The position numbers were made by a program, and so were the translations under genes. Of a stretch of 64,000 nucleotides of DNA, positions 431 through 23,215 are shown one piece after another (position 1 is the stretch's first letter; each line of letters opens with the position of its first letter). Origin of the DNA: a phage. Under the pieces are notes generated by a model that did no database searches, was not told the DNA's origin, and worked only from the letters and a program-made list of their open reading frames with translations. The stretch lies in the sequence record PX930852.1. The stretch is one strand, 5' to 3'.

Positions 431-1216
431 TTAGTTCTTTGCGTCTAAGAAGGTAACTTCTGGTGAAGAGAAGATTGCCTCAATATCCTCATCAGTTCTT
501 GCATAGATATAAGCTTCTGCATCACTACCAAATGTTACAGCAATTCTGTGATTGCTCTTTGACAGGTGGGTAACTAGAGCGTTACTTAGAGACATCTTTT
601 CAACCGGAGGGTTACTTTGATGTATCTTACCTTTTCTTCGTCTGAAGAGGGTAACTGCGTTATCTGTGAACACTGCTACACCTGCAAAGTATTCTGGTTC
701 ACAGTAGTTCTTCCAACCTGAGAGTAACTTGTGGTACATCTCTCCTTCATAGACATATAGATAAACATCTACACTCTTCATCACCTGATTGATGATAACT
801 GTGACGGCTTGAGGGTCAAGTCCACCGATACCTGCACCAATCATAGGTAAACCAACTTTCTTCAACTGATTGACTTCACAGTACCTGTTAAGTTTCTTCA
901 AAGATGACTCTAAAGCACTGTATCGGGCATCTTTACCAGTCTTAAGCTGAGTGTAAAGGTTAGCTATACGACCTTGTTTTAAACGTGCTACAGAGAAATT
1001 ACCCAGTAAATTTTCACAGGGCTTGTGGCCTATACCACCTGCATACAGATAAACTTCTGTATCGGTCTCATATGCTTTTGGGTAAAGTTTAGAAATCTTG
1101 TCAGCGATACCTGCACCCATTAAGTTCATACAGTTGCAACCGTGACCAATAATATCAAACTTACCTTTATCAAATGCGGAGAAGATATCCCCATTGATGA
1201 TTTTTACAATACCCAT
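431..1216 (-). CDS. Macro-domain-like (ADP-ribose binding/processing) protein with a C-terminal extension
   Basis: N-terminal INGDIFSAF..DIIGHGCNCMNLMGAGIA and later GLPMIGAGIGGLDP resemble the two glycine-rich motifs of macro domains (compare YmdB/Af1521 pattern). Confidence 0.5.
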   Translation of the reverse strand: MGIVKIINGDIFSAFDKGKFDIIGHGCNCMNLMGAGIADKISKLYPKAYETDTEVYLYAGGIGHKPCENLLGNFSVARLKQGRIANLYTQLKTGKDARYSALESSLKKLNRYCEVNQLKKVGLPMIGAGIGGLDPQAVTVIINQVMKSVDVYLYVYEGEMYHKLLSGWKNYCEPEYFAGVAVFTDNAVTLFRRRKGKIHQSNPPVEKMSLSNALVTHLSKSNHRIAVTFGSDAEAYIYARTDEDIEAIFSSPEVTFLDAKN

Positions 1217-8426: not shown

Positions 8427-8612
8427 AATACTTTCCTCTCAGTTTACTGTTAAATTACTTATTAAACATTTTACCAGAACCACCACACATAGGGCAACAT
8501 CCTGCCCTTATGTACCCCTCTCCATTACAGTAGTCACATTTTTTGTGCTCTGCAAAGTACTTACAAAGGAGGTAAACAAATACTGCTACACTACCAAGTG
8601 ACAGTAAAATTT

Positions 8613-8948
8613 CTATCCAATATGCTTGCATGACTCACCTCTCATATTCTTGTAAAGGATAAAGCTTCTGTCATGGACGATACTTGTAGACACTGCAAAG
8701 TTACTTTCAAGCATCTGTTTGTTTGGATTGTAGAAGCTTTCTTTAAACTCGTCAAGTGCAAATTGGTGATTATCTGGAAGACCTTTTACACAGACCTTTA
8801 TTGTAATTGCTGCTGCGACCTTGCCAGTCAGTTCTTCTTTAGCTGCTACTAAAATTTTGTTAAGAAACTTATGGCCATCTTCAGGCTTCTTGATGTTCTC
8901 CCAACGTTCTTCTAAGACAATGTTGATGTTCATCTCTTTGATTTTCAT
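8613..8948 (-). CDS. Hypothetical protein
   Basis: 111-aa ORF. Confidence 0.4.
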   Translation of the reverse strand: MKIKEMNINIVLEERWENIKKPEDGHKFLNKILVAAKEELTGKVAAAITIKVCVKGLPDNHQFALDEFKESFYNPNKQMLESNFAVSTSIVHDRSFILYKNMRGESCKHIG

Positions 8949-8963
8949 AGTTTTCTCCAGAAA

Positions 8964-8986
8964 TTAAAAAGGCTCCCGTAGGAGCC
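8964..8986 (-). terminator. Rho-independent terminator (GGCTCC-CGTA-GGAGCC plus T-run)
   Basis: Perfect stem-loop followed by T-run on minus strand, downstream of the NAMPT-family gene. Confidence 0.55.
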
Positions 8987-9001
8987 TCTTATCATATACT
9001 T

Positions 9002-10783
9002 TTAAAGCTGCTTGTCAATATTATTTCGAATATCACCAAGAGTTGTGTAACCAAACTGCTCAGAGTCACTAAAGACTAAACGTAAAGCACAAGCTGGGTG
9101 GTCAAGTACATCTGCAAAACTCTGGAATCCATAGCCATCTACAGCTTTCAGCTTACCACCATCCCACATAGGTGCTACACCACCAAAGGCAGATTTCTTA
9201 ACACCACTATCTGTTTTAGGGTCTTTTGCAAGCATAATCTCTTTACCACCAATGCTTGCAAGAGTTGCTTTGACAGCAAATGCAAAGGTGTCACGAGTCA
9301 TGTACTGGTAAGTGTAAGAACCTACGCCAAACACTACGTTAGAGCTTGCAAAACCCATTTCATACAGACGCTTCAGGATTTCGTTTGCACGTTCCAGCGT
9401 GATAGAGTCACCATAGATAAGTCCGATATGCTCATCCAGTACCTTAAACCCTTTAGAGTTAATAGTTCCCCCAAAGATGTTGTACAGTGTCTTAATAGCT
9501 CCATCAATCTCAGCTACAGGACGTGTTACAACGTTTGCAGAACCAACCATATAAGCGTTTTTCAACAGCACTGTATCAGCAACTTCAAAGTCTTCTCTGT
9601 CAACAACCATTTCGTAGCCTTCTGACAGTAGCCATCCAGCAATACCATAATTGATGTTTTCAAGCTTCATGTTCAGAACAGCATTCAACATTGTGTCACT
9701 GGCTTCAAGCTTGCTTAAGTGTTCGTAATAAGCCTTTTTAGCACACTCTAAGTGGATTGCTTTATAACCTGTGACAATATGTACAGGGTCTCCAGAGTCA
9801 GGACGAATTACCAGTTTACCGTCACGTCCCATAATCTCTTTGCGAAGTGCTGGTAAGATTTCTGACACAGTTCTCCAGAAGTTATAAGTGTCTGAAACAA
9901 CACTTGCAATACCAGTTGGGTAAGTTTCTGTTAAGAAACGACGGAAGGTTTGTAACTCACCTTTAAAGCGTCTTTCTTCTTCAATCAACTCATTACCACC
10001 TTCCCAAGCGATGTTTGCACACATTACAGAGTGTTCAGTGGCTGGTACAGAACTACCAATATCAGAGATTGGGTAAGACTGTCCATAGATTCGTTTAGCC
10101 GTATACACAGCAGGGAAGCTATCAGTTCCTTTAAAGCTGGTTAAGTGGCCTACAGCGTTAAATGCGTCATCAGTAAAGCCGGACATACCACGCATAGCAA
10201 AGTCATGGCACTGATAAGGCAAATGCAAGTCGTTGTCACAAGTAAGGTCAGCCCACTTCTTACAGATACGTTTGTAGTGCAATGCAATAGTTGCAATGGT
10301 ACAAGCCTTCCAAATCTCAGCAGAGAAAGCATCTTCCAGATAACCTGCTACCCAATGGAAACCTGAAACAGTGTTCTGGAAAACAATCATCGGAACACGC
10401 ATAGGGACAACCGTGCCTTCTTCTACAGCGTATACTTCAACTGGTAGATAACCTAAGTCGTGAAGTGCTTCCCAATGCTCTCGACCGATAGCATCTTTGC
10501 CCAGAACACCATTCATGACTTCTAAGATTTCGTCAATTGCTTCTTTTTTGTCACGTTCAAAGAACGTAGCATTCCAGTGGTCTATCAAGTAATCTTTAAC
10601 AAAACGTTGAATACCAAAAGCGACTACACCATCAATTGCTAATGGGCTGTTAAACCATTTGTCGCTACGTGGTGTCAGGTTGAACATCAAATATTCTGTT
10701 GCACTAGGGTACTGGTAAACATGACCAGATTTGTAAGCATCTGCGTTTAAACCTGCTGGTACTGCATAAAGTGATTTAGTCAT
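9002..10783 (-). CDS. Nicotinamide phosphoribosyltransferase family protein (NAMPT/NadV-like; possibly nicotinamide ADP-ribose transferase, Namat, of a NARP1 pathway)
   Basis: DAYKSGHVYQYP, HDFAMRGMSGF..FKGTDS, SVPATEHSVM, SVVSDTYNFW, VIRPDSGDPV all match conserved NAMPT blocks. Confidence 0.85.
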   Translation of the reverse strand: MTKSLYAVPAGLNADAYKSGHVYQYPSATEYLMFNLTPRSDKWFNSPLAIDGVVAFGIQRFVKDYLIDHWNATFFERDKKEAIDEILEVMNGVLGKDAIGREHWEALHDLGYLPVEVYAVEEGTVVPMRVPMIVFQNTVSGFHWVAGYLEDAFSAEIWKACTIATIALHYKRICKKWADLTCDNDLHLPYQCHDFAMRGMSGFTDDAFNAVGHLTSFKGTDSFPAVYTAKRIYGQSYPISDIGSSVPATEHSVMCANIAWEGGNELIEEERRFKGELQTFRRFLTETYPTGIASVVSDTYNFWRTVSEILPALRKEIMGRDGKLVIRPDSGDPVHIVTGYKAIHLECAKKAYYEHLSKLEASDTMLNAVLNMKLENINYGIAGWLLSEGYEMVVDREDFEVADTVLLKNAYMVGSANVVTRPVAEIDGAIKTLYNIFGGTINSKGFKVLDEHIGLIYGDSITLERANEILKRLYEMGFASSNVVFGVGSYTYQYMTRDTFAFAVKATLASIGGKEIMLAKDPKTDSGVKKSAFGGVAPMWDGGKLKAVDGYGFQSFADVLDHPACALRLVFSDSEQFGYTTLGDIRNNIDKQL

Positions 10784-10828
10784 CTTTTAATCTCTCTCAA
10801 AATGGGGCTTTCAAGCCCCTATAAACTT

Positions 10829-11725
10829 TCAATCAAGGTTTGCTACAGTAACTTGACCATAATGTGTTAAGCCACGGTCTTTAGCTTCGCCTAAAGAGTT
10901 TGTAGTGTAAATATGGTCGATACCGTTGTCAAGAAGGTTTTCAACACCTTTAGAGAAGATACCATGTGTTACATAAAGCTCAACACGTTTTGCACCTGCT
11001 TCACGTAGGTGTTTAGCTGCCTCTACGAAGGTTCGACCACCATCACAGATATCATCAAGAATCATGACGGTTTTATCGGTCAAATCAACATCGTCAAGGA
11101 TTCGCATACCAGTGATTTCTCCAGTCTTAAGATTTCGCACCTTAGACATTGTGATATATGGTTTATCCACCTCTTTAGCAGTCTCTGCAATCTTCTTAGA
11201 AGCACCTGCATCTGGGGCTACTAAGTAATCAATTAGAGGGTCATTTGCATAGTGGACTGCAATCTCCTTTTGAGGAATACTTTGGAAGCAGTTAAACAGG
11301 TTATCTGGTACATAACTGTGAGGGTCAACTGCACAGACTGCACCAAATCCCATTGCATTTACCTGTTTAGCAAAAACCTTTAAAGCTGCTGCGTCGCCTT
11401 TAAACATGTGACGGTCGTATCGTGCATTTGGCAAGTAGTAAAAAATGACAGTCTTCAGGGCATAATCATGAGGAACTAAATCGTCAATTGCTTCTTTAGC
11501 CAGTGCCACAGCAAACAGTGTGTCTTTGTTATAACCCTTTACAATCATAACCACATTGTTAATAGATGATGCTGCATAAGCAGTAAAATCAACAAGCTCT
11601 TGTGAAAAGTGGCCACCAATCTCACCAGAAGGGAATTGGATGATGTTAAACTCTTCTTCATGAGTTCCTTTAGTCGGTGAATGAATTGTGACACGGATAG
11701 ATGTTTTCATAGTTTTCTCTCTCAA
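10829..11725 (-). CDS. Ribose-phosphate pyrophosphokinase family protein (Prs-like; possibly ADP-ribose pyrophosphokinase, Adps, of a NARP1 pathway)
   Basis: LVAPDAGASKKIAE and MILDDICDGGRTF match the Prs PRPP-binding/PRTase loops; directly upstream of the NAMPT-family gene. Confidence 0.8.
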   Translation of the reverse strand: MREKTMKTSIRVTIHSPTKGTHEEEFNIIQFPSGEIGGHFSQELVDFTAYAASSINNVVMIVKGYNKDTLFAVALAKEAIDDLVPHDYALKTVIFYYLPNARYDRHMFKGDAAALKVFAKQVNAMGFGAVCAVDPHSYVPDNLFNCFQSIPQKEIAVHYANDPLIDYLVAPDAGASKKIAETAKEVDKPYITMSKVRNLKTGEITGMRILDDVDLTDKTVMILDDICDGGRTFVEAAKHLREAGAKRVELYVTHGIFSKGVENLLDNGIDHIYTTNSLGEAKDRGLTHYGQVTVANLD

Positions 11726-12000
11726 TCAAAAGTTACGTTTGTTACTGCCATTGCAGATTTGCATTTTGCAGGGTCTACAACGTGATAAAGTACACTACAG
11801 TTACCTGTGCTGTCTGGTACAGGTTTAACCCATTGTTGCTTGACAGTTGGTTCGCCTAAGTCTTTGTAAGAACCATCTGTAAAGTTGTTTACCATCTCAA
11901 GTGCAATTGGCTCTGGAACATGACCACGTATCATGTACATTTCACAACCATTACCTCCTTCACTGACTAATGGTAAAATCTCCCACTTTTCTTTAGCCAT
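11722..12000 (-). CDS. Hypothetical protein
   Basis: 92-aa ORF overlapping neighbours by a few bp. Confidence 0.4.
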   Translation of the reverse strand: MAKEKWEILPLVSEGGNGCEMYMIRGHVPEPIALEMVNNFTDGSYKDLGEPTVKQQWVKPVPDSTGNCSVLYHVVDPAKCKSAMAVTNVTFD

Positions 12001-12508
12001 TATAAGTTGCCCTATAAACTGTCTCGAACTTCAACAGGAGAGATATTGCCAAATCTGTATAGTTGTTGTCAAGCACATCTGGCATATTATTTTTGATATA
12101 TTTCTCTTGCTCTTCATAGGTCATCTTAGGGATACTTAGGAGGCTATCTCCTTGCTTCTGGTTATCAGCTTTAGTTTGGATAAACCAGTTTGCACAGTGA
12201 TGTTCACCACCTTTTGTAACAGGTTTGTGATGACCTAATGTAAATGTTTGCTTACCCGTATACCTGCAAAGATTGTTCAGTGTTGCAATGGTGTTCTTCA
12301 CAACACACCATTCATACAGGTTATCTATTGTGTAGTGTGGGTAATAACGGACAAGTGCTCTTTCACGGAAGTTATCACGATTCCAAAGAACCATGTGATT
12401 AGAATTTGAAGGGTCATATTTGTGGGAGTCTATAAACTCTTGACGCTCATCAAAGCTGAGTCTTAGAACTGACATTGCAACCGAACGTTTCAGGTTTGAC
12501 AGATACAT
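11993..12508 (-). CDS. HNH-family endonuclease-like protein (possible homing endonuclease)
   Basis: GHHKPVTKGGEHHCANWFIQTKADNQ resembles HNH core (HH..P..GG...N....N). Confidence 0.4.
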   Translation of the reverse strand: MYLSNLKRSVAMSVLRLSFDERQEFIDSHKYDPSNSNHMVLWNRDNFRERALVRYYPHYTIDNLYEWCVVKNTIATLNNLCRYTGKQTFTLGHHKPVTKGGEHHCANWFIQTKADNQKQGDSLLSIPKMTYEEQEKYIKNNMPDVLDNNYTDLAISLLLKFETVYRATYNG

Positions 12509-12559
12509 TTTACCTCCAAAATAAAAAGGGAACCTTTACAGTCCCCTTATAGTATCTGT

Positions 12560-21420: not shown

Positions 21421-21745
21421 GGTATTTCTCCAAGTTTCTTTTTAGATATAACCAACCGTAGTCAGTCCTTTCTACACCCATAAAAAGTGGAGCCATCACA
21501 ACTTTACCAAAAGTATTCCTGTGTTGGCAGATTTCAAAAGAATACTCTTTCTCAATATCAATCCCATATTTGTACAGGACTGCTTTTAAAACTTGTTCAT
21601 TGTCCAGAAGTGTATCTGGAGTCTCACCATATTTTTCTAGTAACGGGTCATTCATAAACACCGTCATAGAAATATTGTAGTTTGAGAAGTGGCTCTTCTG
21701 AGCCACACCCTCTTTATTAATGTTCTGTGAATCCATTATAACCAA
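21413..21745 (-). CDS. Hypothetical protein
   Basis: 110-aa ORF. Confidence 0.35.
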   Translation of the reverse strand: MVIMDSQNINKEGVAQKSHFSNYNISMTVFMNDPLLEKYGETPDTLLDNEQVLKAVLYKYGIDIEKEYSFEICQHRNTFGKVVMAPLFMGVERTDYGWLYLKRNLEKYRV

Positions 21746-22472
21746 CCCCTTTTAACCAGCACTTCAGGTTATTAGCATCATAATTCAGTTTCGGGTATGA
21801 GGTTACATGGAACTGCTCACCATCATAGTAGACAATATCTGCAATCCATAGTCCATTCTCTTTACAGAAGTCTTTATCTGCTTTAGAGGTAATTGGATTA
21901 ACTTCTACAAAACCATCTACACCCAAATCCTTTAAGCTACCTACAATACCTTTGCAGATAACGCATGTCTCAGATACTACCACAAAAAGTTCTTGGCTTT
22001 CAAGCTCTACAATGTATTCACCAAGCTGTACTTTAGGGAGATTTGATTGCTTCATAATCTTCCCATCGGCTGCACGGACAATCGCATACCACTCTTTACC
22101 ATCAACCACTGACATTCGAATAATACACTCTTGACCAGTACGCTTTTCAATGTCTGCAAGACGTTTTAAAGCTTCTTCATAATCGTCTGTGTACTTCAGG
22201 TCATTATTATAGCAAACAGCTTTCATAGCACCGTTATGGTCATGTTGTGACAGGTAAATCAAACCGTCAAGAACATATTGCAAATCTGCCTGAGCATCCA
22301 GTGTCTCAATGGGGTCTTTCTCTTCAATTGCTTTTACAAGCTCTTTTGCTTCTTCAAGCATACACAGAGATTGAGATTTCAAAGATTCCCAATACTCATT
22401 ACTGTAAGGTTGTTTTTGAGTGTTTCCACAACGAAGATTCCAGTTTTTTACTGATTCTCTTGAGTTAAACAT
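21717..22472 (-). CDS. MazG-like nucleotide pyrophosphohydrolase domain protein (tentative) with C-terminal extension
   Basis: LEEAKELVKAIEE...D..ELDAQADLQYVLDGLIY resembles the EExxE/D MazG helical motif. Confidence 0.3.
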   Translation of the reverse strand: MFNSRESVKNWNLRCGNTQKQPYSNEYWESLKSQSLCMLEEAKELVKAIEEKDPIETLDAQADLQYVLDGLIYLSQHDHNGAMKAVCYNNDLKYTDDYEEALKRLADIEKRTGQECIIRMSVVDGKEWYAIVRAADGKIMKQSNLPKVQLGEYIVELESQELFVVVSETCVICKGIVGSLKDLGVDGFVEVNPITSKADKDFCKENGLWIADIVYYDGEQFHVTSYPKLNYDANNLKCWLKGVGYNGFTEH

Positions 22473-22717: not shown

Positions 22718-23215
22718 TCAAGCACAATTTGCTTTCATTACCTTATGGATTCTTTTTTCAGCATCTTCATAAGTTTCTTTAGTAATAAACTTAATTGCTG
22801 CAATATTGGCATTGTAGAAGAGTCTGAGCTTCGAGTCAATCCTTTTTGTCATTACATCGAATTTATGTTGAAGGTTTGCTTCACCATAGACTAGGCCACC
22901 TTTTGTGTAGTAGGTTTGGATAATGTAAAAGTCAAAAAATTCTTTTCCAAAGCTCTCAATATCTTTTTTAATATACTCAGAAGAGGTTTCGTAAGTCATC
23001 CAATCACTTTCCTTAGTGACTACCTTCTTCCGAGTCTTCCCAGCAACTTTTCTTTTGGTCACACTGTTAAGCTGTTTCTTTCCAATATAATATTGTCCAG
23101 TCTTCTTACAGTGTACTAAATAGACAAAGCCGAAATGTTTAGTGGGGTCAACTTCCCCACATAAAGATACCCAATGACCATAGGTAGGGCAATTGCCAAA
23201 TCCTTTAATCTTCAT
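22718..23215 (-). CDS. GIY-YIG-like nuclease domain protein (possible homing endonuclease)
   Basis: GFVYLVHCKKTGQYYIGKK resembles GIY..YIG motif. Confidence 0.4.
   Translation of the reverse strand: MKIKGFGNCPTYGHWVSLCGEVDPTKHFGFVYLVHCKKTGQYYIGKKQLNSVTKRKVAGKTRKKVVTKESDWMTYETSSEYIKKDIESFGKEFFDFYIIQTYYTKGGLVYGEANLQHKFDVMTKRIDSKLRLFYNANIAAIKFITKETYEDAEKRIHKVMKANCA

Follow-up and report, generated by a model that had tools for sequence, protein, structure and literature searches.

NARP1 (NAD+ reconstitution pathway 1) is an important counter-defence with which phages restore NAD+ out of what Thoeris, DSR, SIR2-HerA, SEFIR and similar systems leave behind, and knowing which phages carry it helps host-range prediction and the choice of therapeutic phages. 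The pathway was discovered in genes 79-80 of phage Bas63 (Osterman et al., bioRxiv 10.1101/2024.02.11.579819). In that work, Bas63 lacking both genes plaqued about 20-fold less on cells carrying SIR2-HerA, with a more severe NAD+ depletion, and the effect was independent of host pncC or nadR. The intermediate ADPR-PP was seen only when wild-type Bas63 met the defence system. The Bas63 Adps 'did not purify well', and the enzymes that were purified came from SPbetaL1. SPbetaL1 Adps converted ADPR and ATP to ADPR-PP in vitro with no Prs-type product, and its catalytic lysine was probed with a K162A mutant. SPbetaL1 Namat yielded NAD+ and no other product when given both ADPR-PP and PRPP, while in reactions without ADPR-PP it made NMN from PRPP (all 10.1101/2024.02.11.579819).

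The NARP1 of SPbetaL1, a Bacillus phage, is also described structurally (PDB 9w5w/9w5x; Lan et al., NAR 2026, PMC12774641). An aromatic motif in the selectivity-clamp helix (SCH) and a stacking residue in the selectivity-clamp loop (SCL) form the Namat consensus and are absent from Nampt (PMC12774641); the published rule for the SCL is an Arg at the third position, or a Lys/Tyr followed by a stacking residue. Vibrio phage Gary carries NARP1-AP, ordered Adps-Adpp-Namat (Osterman et al., bioRxiv 10.64898/2026.01.28.702374), and Vibrio phage KVP40 carries NARP2. A co-oriented namat directly beside adps, a published criterion for NARP1, is found in 97% of the Adps clade.

The adps-namat pair and its counterpart in Bas63

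We analysed a stretch of 64,000 nucleotides of phage DNA (sequence record PX930852.1), hereafter the window, which belongs to a Felixounavirus, the same genus as BASEL phage Bas63 (JohannRWettstein). A preliminary description, made without database searches, had reported a Prs-like and a NAMPT-like ORF on one strand. Both are present at the coordinates given there, on the minus strand, and the larger one contains an insertion:

10829..11710, minus strand: adps, predicted ADP-ribose pyrophosphate synthetase (Prs-like), 293 aa from ATG
9002..10783, minus strand: namat, predicted nicotinamide ADP-ribose transferase (NAMPT-like), ORF of 593 aa
9503..9766, minus strand: Namat insertion, aa 340-427, lacking in SPbetaL1 Namat and in human NAMPT (gap mapping against SPbetaL1)

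The ORF list gives adps mechanically as 10829..11725, 298 aa beginning at a TTG. The real start is likely the ATG at 11710, which is preceded by GAGAGAGA and agrees with the Bas63 annotation. namat adjoins adps on the same strand, with a 45-nt spacer between them. The adps ORF matched PHROG 619 'ribose-phosphate pyrophosphokinase' (2.1e-97) and the namat ORF PHROG 448 'nicotinamide phosphoribosyl transferase' (1.8e-201), and Pfam returned NAPRTase, NAMPT_N, Pribosyltran and Pribosyl_synth for the pair. Matches of this strength indicate a homology to these families that is far beyond chance.

Comparison with Bas63 revealed the same gene order (bas63_0079 Adps, bas63_0080 Namat), the same lengths of 293 and 593 aa, a 45-nt spacer that contains the same hairpin, and the same surroundings, with NrdG upstream and rIIA downstream. 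Namat is identical to Bas63 gp80, of which a model has been published, at 585/593 positions (99%) and Adps to gp79 at 229/293 (78%). The window differs from Bas63 in Adps residues 1-180, which come from another allele class, and in lacking both about 158 nt near bas63_0074 and bas63_0081, a 114-aa gene directly downstream of namat in Bas63 that has no Pfam domain and belongs to a PHROG of unknown function. This orthology and synteny, together with the clamp features of Namat described below, argue that the pair is very probably a NARP1 operon orthologous to Bas63 genes 79-80, and so bear out the NARP1-type reading of the preliminary description.

In the proposed pathway, a host defence (SIR2-HerA, Thoeris, DSR1/2 or SEFIR) would cleave NAD+ to ADP-ribose and nicotinamide. 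Adps (10829-11710) would then use ATP to pyrophosphorylate ADP-ribose to ADPR-PP, and Namat (9002-10783) would swap the pyrophosphate for nicotinamide, giving NAD+ directly, without NMN or NMNAT. Because the pathway was first shown in the same lineage (Bas63, Felixounavirus), the NARP1 pair in the window is already known rather than new, and since operon and genus are those of the original discovery, the locus adds no new principle. It does argue for correcting the annotation 'ribose-phosphate pyrophosphokinase / nicotinamide phosphoribosyltransferase' to Adps / Namat, and it raises two small points, a dimorphism of Adps alleles and an unlinked Macro protein.

Enzyme features and alternative routes to NAD+

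The best solved relatives of the window Namat are 9w5w/9w5x (7e-128), and 9w5x matches the SPbetaL1 gene at 100% sequence identity. Like SPbetaL1, the window has two adjacent co-oriented genes; the two phages share the Adps catalytic Lys, the full set of Namat catalytic residues and the SCH motif, whereas sequence identity is 33% for Adps and 47% for Namat. The published catalytic and selectivity-clamp positions of Namat are kept throughout (22/22); F195, R198, D221, R327 and D329 correspond to SPbetaL1 F189, R192, D215, R306 and D308, and H251 to the catalytic His. The clamp helix at G488-D498 reads GSYTYQYMTRD, which fits GS-X-phi-X-phi-X-phi-TRD with aromatic X; its third phi is Met, as in Bas63, where Asn or Val is usual. 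The clamp loop, TPR-S-D-K42-W43, is identical to that of Bas63 and agrees with the stacking-residue rule, whereas SPbetaL1 has R40. Compared with SPbetaL1, the window Namat carries insertions of about 15 aa (aa 258-278) and about 85 aa (340-427). Between genera, the second insertion is conserved at 47-50% identity and the rest of the protein at about 82%; the structural paper (PMC12774641) does not discuss this insertion.

Adps K190 aligns with the catalytic K162 of SPbetaL1 (K197 of B. subtilis Prs), and R97, D99, R100, H131 and D219-D220 do not vary among E. coli Prs and all Adps compared. The window Adps scored 123 bits against Gary Adps and at most 67 bits against any solved Prs, which places it nearer to characterised Adps than to any true Prs, and it shares 26% identity with E. 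coli Prs. Identity to Gary is 38% over 213 aligned residues (35% full-length) for Adps and 37% for Namat.

Folds and catalytic motifs are common to the window pair and to the cellular enzymes Prs (class I PRPP synthetase) and NAMPT/NadV. We weighed a canonical salvage route, in which the Prs-like enzyme would make PRPP from ribose-5-phosphate, the NAMPT-like enzyme would make NMN, and host NadR/PncC would finish NAD+. The Pfam, PHROG and NCBIfam names are all of this kind, as are the annotations of almost all GenBank relatives. Namat passes the NadV-type equivalog NF006629 (467 against 405 bits), and Adps narrowly passes the broad subfamily model TIGR01251 (119.5 against 113). That is the only such model Adps passes, however, and it falls below every Prs equivalog cut-off by a wide margin (103.6 against 296, 63.1 against 438 and 60.9 against 518, among others). 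The window Namat likewise carries the aromatic SCH motif and the SCL stacking residue, an adenine-binding clamp that canonical NAMPT lacks. The behaviour of the SPbetaL1 enzymes points the same way: its Adps forms ADPR-PP and no Prs-type product, and its Namat turns to NAD+ alone when both donors are offered. Since that Namat does make NMN from PRPP in vitro once ADPR-PP is absent, some canonical activity of the window pair is possible, but canonical salvage as the role of the pair is highly unlikely.

The window could also encode a route of the NARP2 type, in which NAMPT and a phage NMNAT make NAD+ via NMN, as in KVP40. Like KVP40, it has a NAMPT-family enzyme, which there restores NAD+ in infection. 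The window also covers only about three quarters of its genome. NARP2 of KVP40, however, needs NMNAT and uses PRPP, whereas the partner gene here is adps, and 97% of Adps-clade genes occur together with namat. A Pfam scan of 36 window ORFs found no nucleotidyltransferase/NMNAT domain; no NMNAT was found among the 11 Bas63 ORFs that are absent from or lie outside the window, and none is annotated anywhere in Bas63. The preliminary description had likewise seen no NMNAT in the window and had counted this in favour of NARP1, an observation and an argument that both hold. A NARP2-type route is extremely improbable, which leaves NARP1 as the preferred reading of the pair.

Spacer hairpin, operon borders and neighbouring genes

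The following elements lie within and around the pair:

10804..10819, minus strand: intergenic hairpin GGGGCUUGAAAGCCCC, stem GGGGCU, loop UGAA, stem AGCCCC (sequence and fold)
8967..8990, minus strand: terminator-like hairpin with U-tract just 3' of namat (scan; fold -16.7 kcal/mol)
11722-12000, minus strand: gene of 92 aa, upstream of adps (ORF)
11993-12508, minus strand: gene of 171 aa, weakly HNH-like, upstream of adps (ORF)
12526..12548, minus strand: terminator-like hairpin ahead of the four-gene block (scan and fold)

The spacer hairpin has a folding energy of -14.3 kcal/mol (z = -2.9) and is followed by AUUUU at 10803-10799 and by a Shine-Dalgarno-like element of namat, GAGAGAGA, at 10798-10791. 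Bas63, Citrobacter phage Michonne (Mooglevirus) and phage SUSP2 (Suspvirus) have exactly the same stem, which is thus invariant across three Ounavirinae genera, while the loop and flanks vary; the 'conserved stem-loop' of the preliminary description is correct. Covariation analysis gave no support for the hairpin because the stem never varies in the relatives aligned, which makes pair counts uninformative. FelixO1 has an HNH endonuclease gene in place of the hairpin, which is therefore dispensable. SPbetaL1 also lacks it, as the annotated end of its adps is the start of namat, whereas the window has both hairpin and spacer. We considered whether the hairpin is an intrinsic terminator and rejected this, as it failed the terminator scan, having only 4 U, while clear terminators stand on either side of the block, and as it is lacking in FelixO1. 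It is at most a modulatory element, which might attenuate weakly or act on mRNA stability and so set the Adps:Namat ratio.

The hairpin at 8967..8990 is likely the end of the transcription unit. Michonne has annotated terminators at the places equivalent to 8967..8990 and 12526..12548. Between the two lies a block of four genes, the 171-aa gene, the 92-aa gene, adps and namat, and the last two would be co-transcribed.

The 171-aa and 92-aa genes belong to PHROGs 3500 and 4726, the HNH match being weak, and their order is the same in Bas63, FelixO1, Michonne and SUSP2. We rejected them as NARP1 accessories for lack of evidence: scanning revealed no Pfam or NCBIfam domain in either, they were seen beside adps in Ounavirinae only, and in Klebsiella phage KP13-26 the 171-aa homologue lies away from adps. 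No RyDEP (RyR-domain) or in-operon Adpp accessory gene stands beside the adps/namat pair, a profile scan found no Macro domain in the flanking genes (8613-8948, 8455-8631, 11722-12000 and 11993-12508), and the ORFs scanned contain no Nudix or RyR domain. Where Gary has a Macro-domain phosphatase between adps and namat, the window has the hairpin alone. The published criterion for NARP1-AP places such a phosphatase no more than two genes from the operon, and the window has none at that distance.

Adps allele classes and a distant Macro-domain protein

Both of the small points raised by the window can be assigned to defined intervals:

11171..11710, minus strand: divergent 5' segment of adps, codons 1-180 (DNA identity profile, tblastn, dS)
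431..1216, minus strand: Macro-domain protein, 261 aa (Pfam Macro, 32 bits against a cut-off of 22)

Along adps, the window and Bas63 share 59-68% DNA identity at 11706-11407 and 78-79% at 11406-11207, compared with 99% just upstream of the divergent segment and at least 90% downstream of it. The boundary of this mosaic is sharp and coincides with the adps start codon. At the protein level, residues 1-180 are 66% identical to Bas63, whereas codons 181-293 match at 110/113 positions (97%). tblastn identities of the 5' segment are bimodal, with 155 records at 90% or above and 97 records at 60-80%. The dS of the 5' half, 1.37, is as deep as between genera, while the remainder of the operon is of recent date. 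By these measures the window segment is placed in an old allele class distinct from that of Bas63 and FelixO1. With a dN/dS of 0.17, against 0.04 in the 3' half, the 5' half is under purifying selection.

The divergent allele could mark a functional variant, in which the chemistry is that of NARP1 but the N-terminal part of Adps alters the range of substrates, the regulation of the enzyme or how susceptible it is to a host counter-measure. The sharp boundary at the start codon would suit such a variant, as would the two discrete classes within one genus, the depth of dS in the 5' half beside a recent remainder of the operon, and the higher dN/dS of that half. Every family-invariant catalytic residue of the N-terminal half is nevertheless kept, dN/dS is far under 1, and mosaicism is common in these phages, which makes an adaptive explanation unnecessary. 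Moreover, SPbetaL1 Adps is active at 33% identity, and activity therefore tolerates much greater divergence. A functional variant is unlikely, and the window's allele would have the same activity as Bas63 Adps.

The Macro protein at 431-1216 lies 7.8 kb from the NARP1 pair and counts, with the adps allele and the missing bas63_0081, among the differences from Bas63. It belongs to phrog_335, the same family as Gary Adpp, to which it is 27% identical (E=1e-13); it is slightly nearer to T4 Tk.4/AdfM (34% identity, E=1e-23), described in the literature as an anti-DarTG2 factor. A fold search with the AF2 model (pLDDT 92.7) did not separate the Macro classes: the E-values of the Foldseek matches to TARG1, DarG, viral macrodomains and Poa1p differ by no more than about 1.5 log units. 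Compared with Gary Adpp, the protein has an extra C-terminal domain of roughly 100 aa. It is possibly an Adpp-like ADPR-1''-phosphate phosphatase accessory, or an AdfM-like anti-DarT factor. The published survey searched only within two genes of NARP1 and would have missed a distant Macro homologue of this kind. An extended NARP1 acting in trans, with the Macro protein feeding ADPR from aRES-type NAD+ cleavage to Adps and Namat and with the Adps allele classes marking a host-phage conflict over Adps, is conceivable but rather doubtful.

Gene pair and its kinship with the Bas63 system

The two adjacent minus-strand ORFs of the preliminary description (298 and 593 aa) were recovered in place, with the ORF list and the PHROG and Pfam matches in agreement. 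The TTG of the Prs-like ORF shares bases with the stop codon of the gene before it, and GAGAGAGA precedes an ATG whose 293-aa product agrees with the start annotated in relatives; we take this ATG as the probable start of adps.

10829-11710, minus strand: adps (Prs-like), 293 aa from the ATG at 11710; the longer ORF, 10829-11725, gives 298 aa from a TTG
9002-10783, minus strand: namat (NAMPT-like), 593 aa, adjoining adps

The NAMPT-like protein matched PHROG 448 (nicotinamide phosphoribosyl transferase, 1.8e-201) and the Pfam domains NAPRTase and NAMPT_N, and the Prs-like protein matched PHROG 619 (ribose-phosphate pyrophosphokinase, 2.1e-97), Pribosyltran and Pribosyl_synth; judged by these scores, both family assignments lie far beyond chance. 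PHROGs 16547 and 15800 each match one half of Namat, N-terminal and C-terminal respectively, and some phages may have two-ORF calls. The 2.9-kb region matched 261 phage records, nearly all FelixO1-like myoviruses of Escherichia, Salmonella, Shigella and Citrobacter, with E. coli phage Alf5 on top (97.6%). The window is a segment of a Felixounavirus genome.

NARP1 (NAD+ reconstitution pathway 1) is already known, and since it was discovered in this same genus, to which phage Bas63 belongs, its presence here is of little interest as a finding. Without the two genes, Bas63 plaquing falls ~20-fold on SIR2-HerA cells and NAD+ depletion deepens, and ADPR-pyrophosphate (ADPR-PP) was seen only in wild-type Bas63 infection with the defence system present (bioRxiv 10.1101/2024.02.11.579819). 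Because the Bas63 protein purified poorly, homologues from Bacillus phage SpbetaL1 were used for enzymology: Adps converted ADPR and ATP to ADPR-PP, with no Prs-type product, and Namat made NAD+ from ADPR-PP and nicotinamide, preferring ADPR-PP over PRPP, while K162A in Adps and R306G in Namat abolished the pathway (bioRxiv 10.1101/2024.02.11.579819). The authors' survey placed NARP1 in 859 phage genomes (4.3%), with a neighbouring Namat gene for 97% of Adps-clade genes (bioRxiv 10.1101/2024.02.11.579819). Structural work on SpbetaL1 Namat identified its catalytic residues and a 'selectivity clamp' that binds adenine: a helix carries the motif GS-X-phi-X-phi-X-phi-TRD, X being aromatic, and a loop gives a stacking residue; these clamp features tell Namat from NAMPT (PMC12774641).

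The Bas63 record (MZ501086) has the layout of the window: gp79 (293 aa), a 45-nt spacer and gp80 (593 aa), with NrdG upstream and rIIA downstream. Window Namat is identical to gp80 at 585 of 593 positions and Adps to gp79 at 229 of 293, and the spacer hairpin and ribosome-binding region are the same in both. The pair is orthologous to gp79-gp80, beyond mere family resemblance. Using fetched SpbetaL1 genes, we mapped 22 published SpbetaL1 Namat positions by alignment onto the window protein; all 22 are the same or conservatively replaced relative to SpbetaL1, and all are identical to Bas63. Kept positions include D15/Y17, F195, R198, D221, A248, the catalytic histidine H251, R327 (SpbetaL1 R306), D329 and G458-D459. 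The clamp helix reads G488-S-Y-T-Y-Q-Y-M-T-R-D498, and the loop K42-W43 fits the pattern reported for Bas63, 'Lys then stacking residue'. In Adps, K190 aligned with SpbetaL1 K162, and no substitution occurs at R97, D99, R100, H131 or D219-D220 in E. coli Prs or any Adps aligned.

Rival readings of the pair

A canonical Prs/NAMPT pair had been named as the alternative, to be weighed by profile comparison. Annotation pipelines do call the pair Prs and NadV, as a result of the NCBI curated models: window Adps scores barely above the broad Prs subfamily model (119.5 vs 113 bits), and Namat is above the cut-off of the NadV-type equivalog. Adps falls below the cut-off of every Prs equivalog in the same collection (e.g. 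104 vs 296, 63 vs 438). It is 26% identical to E. coli Prs, and is closer to Adps of Vibrio phage Gary (123 bits), whose NARP1-AP operon was functionally tested (bioRxiv 10.64898/2026.01.28.702374), than to any solved Prs (at most 67 bits), so the comparison came out on the Adps side. The canonical reading is contradicted by Bas63 genetics, by SpbetaL1 enzymology and by the clamp residues in Namat. NARP2, the other route that would use a NAMPT, pairs it with an NMNAT. The earlier observation that the window holds no NMNAT stands in a Pfam scan of the genes flanking the pair and 27 further window ORFs; neither these nor the larger hypothetical proteins of Bas63 outside the window, scanned likewise, gave an NMNAT-type nucleotidyltransferase, Nudix or RyR domain, and the Bas63 annotation lists no NMNAT. 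NARP2 is excluded by the absence of an NMNAT from the ORFs scanned and from the Bas63 annotation.

Bas63 orthology, clamp and catalytic residues, Adps-like scores and lack of an NMNAT together support the NARP1 reading first proposed, and we predict with high confidence that the pair is NARP1 in this phage. Doubt would be limited to its predicted activity here and to the N-terminal allele of its Adps.

Transcription unit and variable sites

12548-12526, minus strand: terminator-like hairpin with U-tract, upstream edge of a four-gene block
11722-12508, minus strand: 171-aa gene (degenerate HNH-like motif, phrog_3500) and 92-aa gene (phrog_4726), between the upstream terminator and adps
10819-10804, minus strand: spacer hairpin GGGGCU-UGAA-AGCCCC, in the 45-nt adps-namat spacer
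9503-9766, minus strand: Namat insertion, aa 340-427, ~85 aa that SpbetaL1 Namat and human NAMPT lack
8990-8967, minus strand: terminator-like hairpin with U-tract, downstream edge of the block

The two terminator-like hairpins enclose the 171-aa HNH-like gene, the 92-aa gene, adps and namat. Citrobacter phage Michonne has terminators annotated at both equivalent positions, and the four-gene order is kept in Felixounavirus, Mooglevirus and Suspvirus; in Klebsiella phage KP13-26 the homologue of the 171-aa gene lies apart from adps.

The spacer hairpin, followed by AUUUU and the ribosome-binding-like element GAGAGAGA, has a folding energy of -14.3 kcal/mol, lower than that of shuffled sequence (z = -2.9). 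As first described, it is conserved: its stem is invariant in the same three genera while loop and flanks vary, which amounts to conservation without covariation. FelixO1 carries a free-standing HNH endonuclease gene (L009:4391-4882, FelixO1 record) instead of the hairpin (window spacer 10784-10828), and HNH insertions in the adps-namat region also occur in ULIM3, ASO1B, dune, radambza and Mushroom, so the element is conserved but dispensable. It may act as a weak attenuator or stabilise the mRNA.

Differences from the CHARACTERISED system lie in the adps 5' half and in bas63_0081 (114 aa, L006:25509-25853, Bas63 record; phrog_20372, no Pfam domain), which directly follows namat in Bas63 and is absent from the window (8949-9001). 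Alf5 has ~350 extra bases in the corresponding region, and this slot appears to be a variable site beside the anti-defence operon. A 58-aa ORF (8455-8631, minus strand), flanked by rIIA and by the 111-aa gene (8613-8948) that follows namat, has CxxC...CxxCxGxG zinc-ribbon-like motifs and weak DnaJ_CXXCXGXG and DUF5351 matches; the Bas63 annotation calls it a putative membrane protein. Within namat, the insertion is present in both window and Bas63 and partly in Gary Namat; no other part of the protein evolves as fast (47-50% identity across genera vs ~82% elsewhere), and the SpbetaL1 structural paper does not mention it (PMC12774641).

Adps alleles and a distant Macro-domain protein

11171-11710, minus strand: divergent adps 5' segment, ~180 codons
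431-1216, minus strand: Macro-domain protein, 261 aa, Pfam Macro above cut-off, encoded on the NARP1 strand at a distance of 7.8 kb

Just upstream of the adps start codon the window and Bas63 share 99% DNA identity; this falls to 59-68% in the first 300 nt of the gene, is 78-79% in the next 200 and at least 90% thereafter. In phage records, identity over the N-terminal 180 residues falls into two groups, with 155 records at >=90% (the wV8/warpig type, including the window), 97 at 60-80% (the FelixO1/Bas63 type) and a single one at 80-90%, so the window allele differs in class from that tested in Bas63. Against Bas63, codons 1-180 have a dS of 1.37, which matches the depth seen against other genera (1.2-1.5), codons 181-293 have 0.39 and namat has 0.17; the respective dN/dS values are 0.17, 0.04 and 0.035. 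Deep dS with low dN/dS indicates that the 5' half is an old allele, exchanged through recombination and kept functional. A change of function through this allele is unlikely, because SpbetaL1 Adps works at 33% identity.

The Macro-domain protein, found during the NMNAT search, is a homologue of bas63_0095 ('putative phosphatase'). Accessory NARP1 genes have recently been described, RyDEP (RyR-domain glycosidase) and Adpp (Macro-domain ADPR-1''-phosphate phosphatase), and neither lies inside or adjoins the window operon. With the Macro protein as query, tblastn retrieved the gene adjoining adps in phage Gary, the characterised Adpp; the two proteins align along their full length (27% identity, E = 1e-13), and phrog_335 holds both. 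The published Adpp survey covered two genes each side of NARP1 (bioRxiv 10.64898/2026.01.28.702374), so an unlinked copy would go uncounted. A slightly better match than Adpp is T4 Tk.4 (34% identity, E = 1e-23), which a 2025 preprint names AdfM and reports as an anti-DarTG2 factor. A confident AF2 model (pLDDT 92.7) of the window protein has a Macro fold with an extra beta-rich C-terminal domain, and Foldseek did not separate TARG1 and DarG (~1e-9) from Poa1p (1e-8). The similarity between Gary Adpp and T4 AdfM is on a par with what each shares with the window protein, whose role may be that of an anti-DarT de-ADP-ribosylase or of an ADPR-1''-phosphate phosphatase that supplies NARP1, or may combine the two. 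That NARP1-AP operates in trans through this unlinked protein, and/or that the Adps dimorphism is functionally meaningful, seems improbable.

The replication module encodes a SegE-like GIY-YIG homing endonuclease (22718-23215, minus strand; Pfam 9.4e-28), and also a protein of 251 aa that carries a PRA-PH/MazG-like pyrophosphohydrolase domain (21717-22472, minus strand; 1.2e-05). GC skew changes sign at ~30 kb and reverses at ~42 kb, coinciding with gene-orientation switches, where DNA polymerase and nucleotide-metabolism genes lie on the plus strand (~30000, ~42000).
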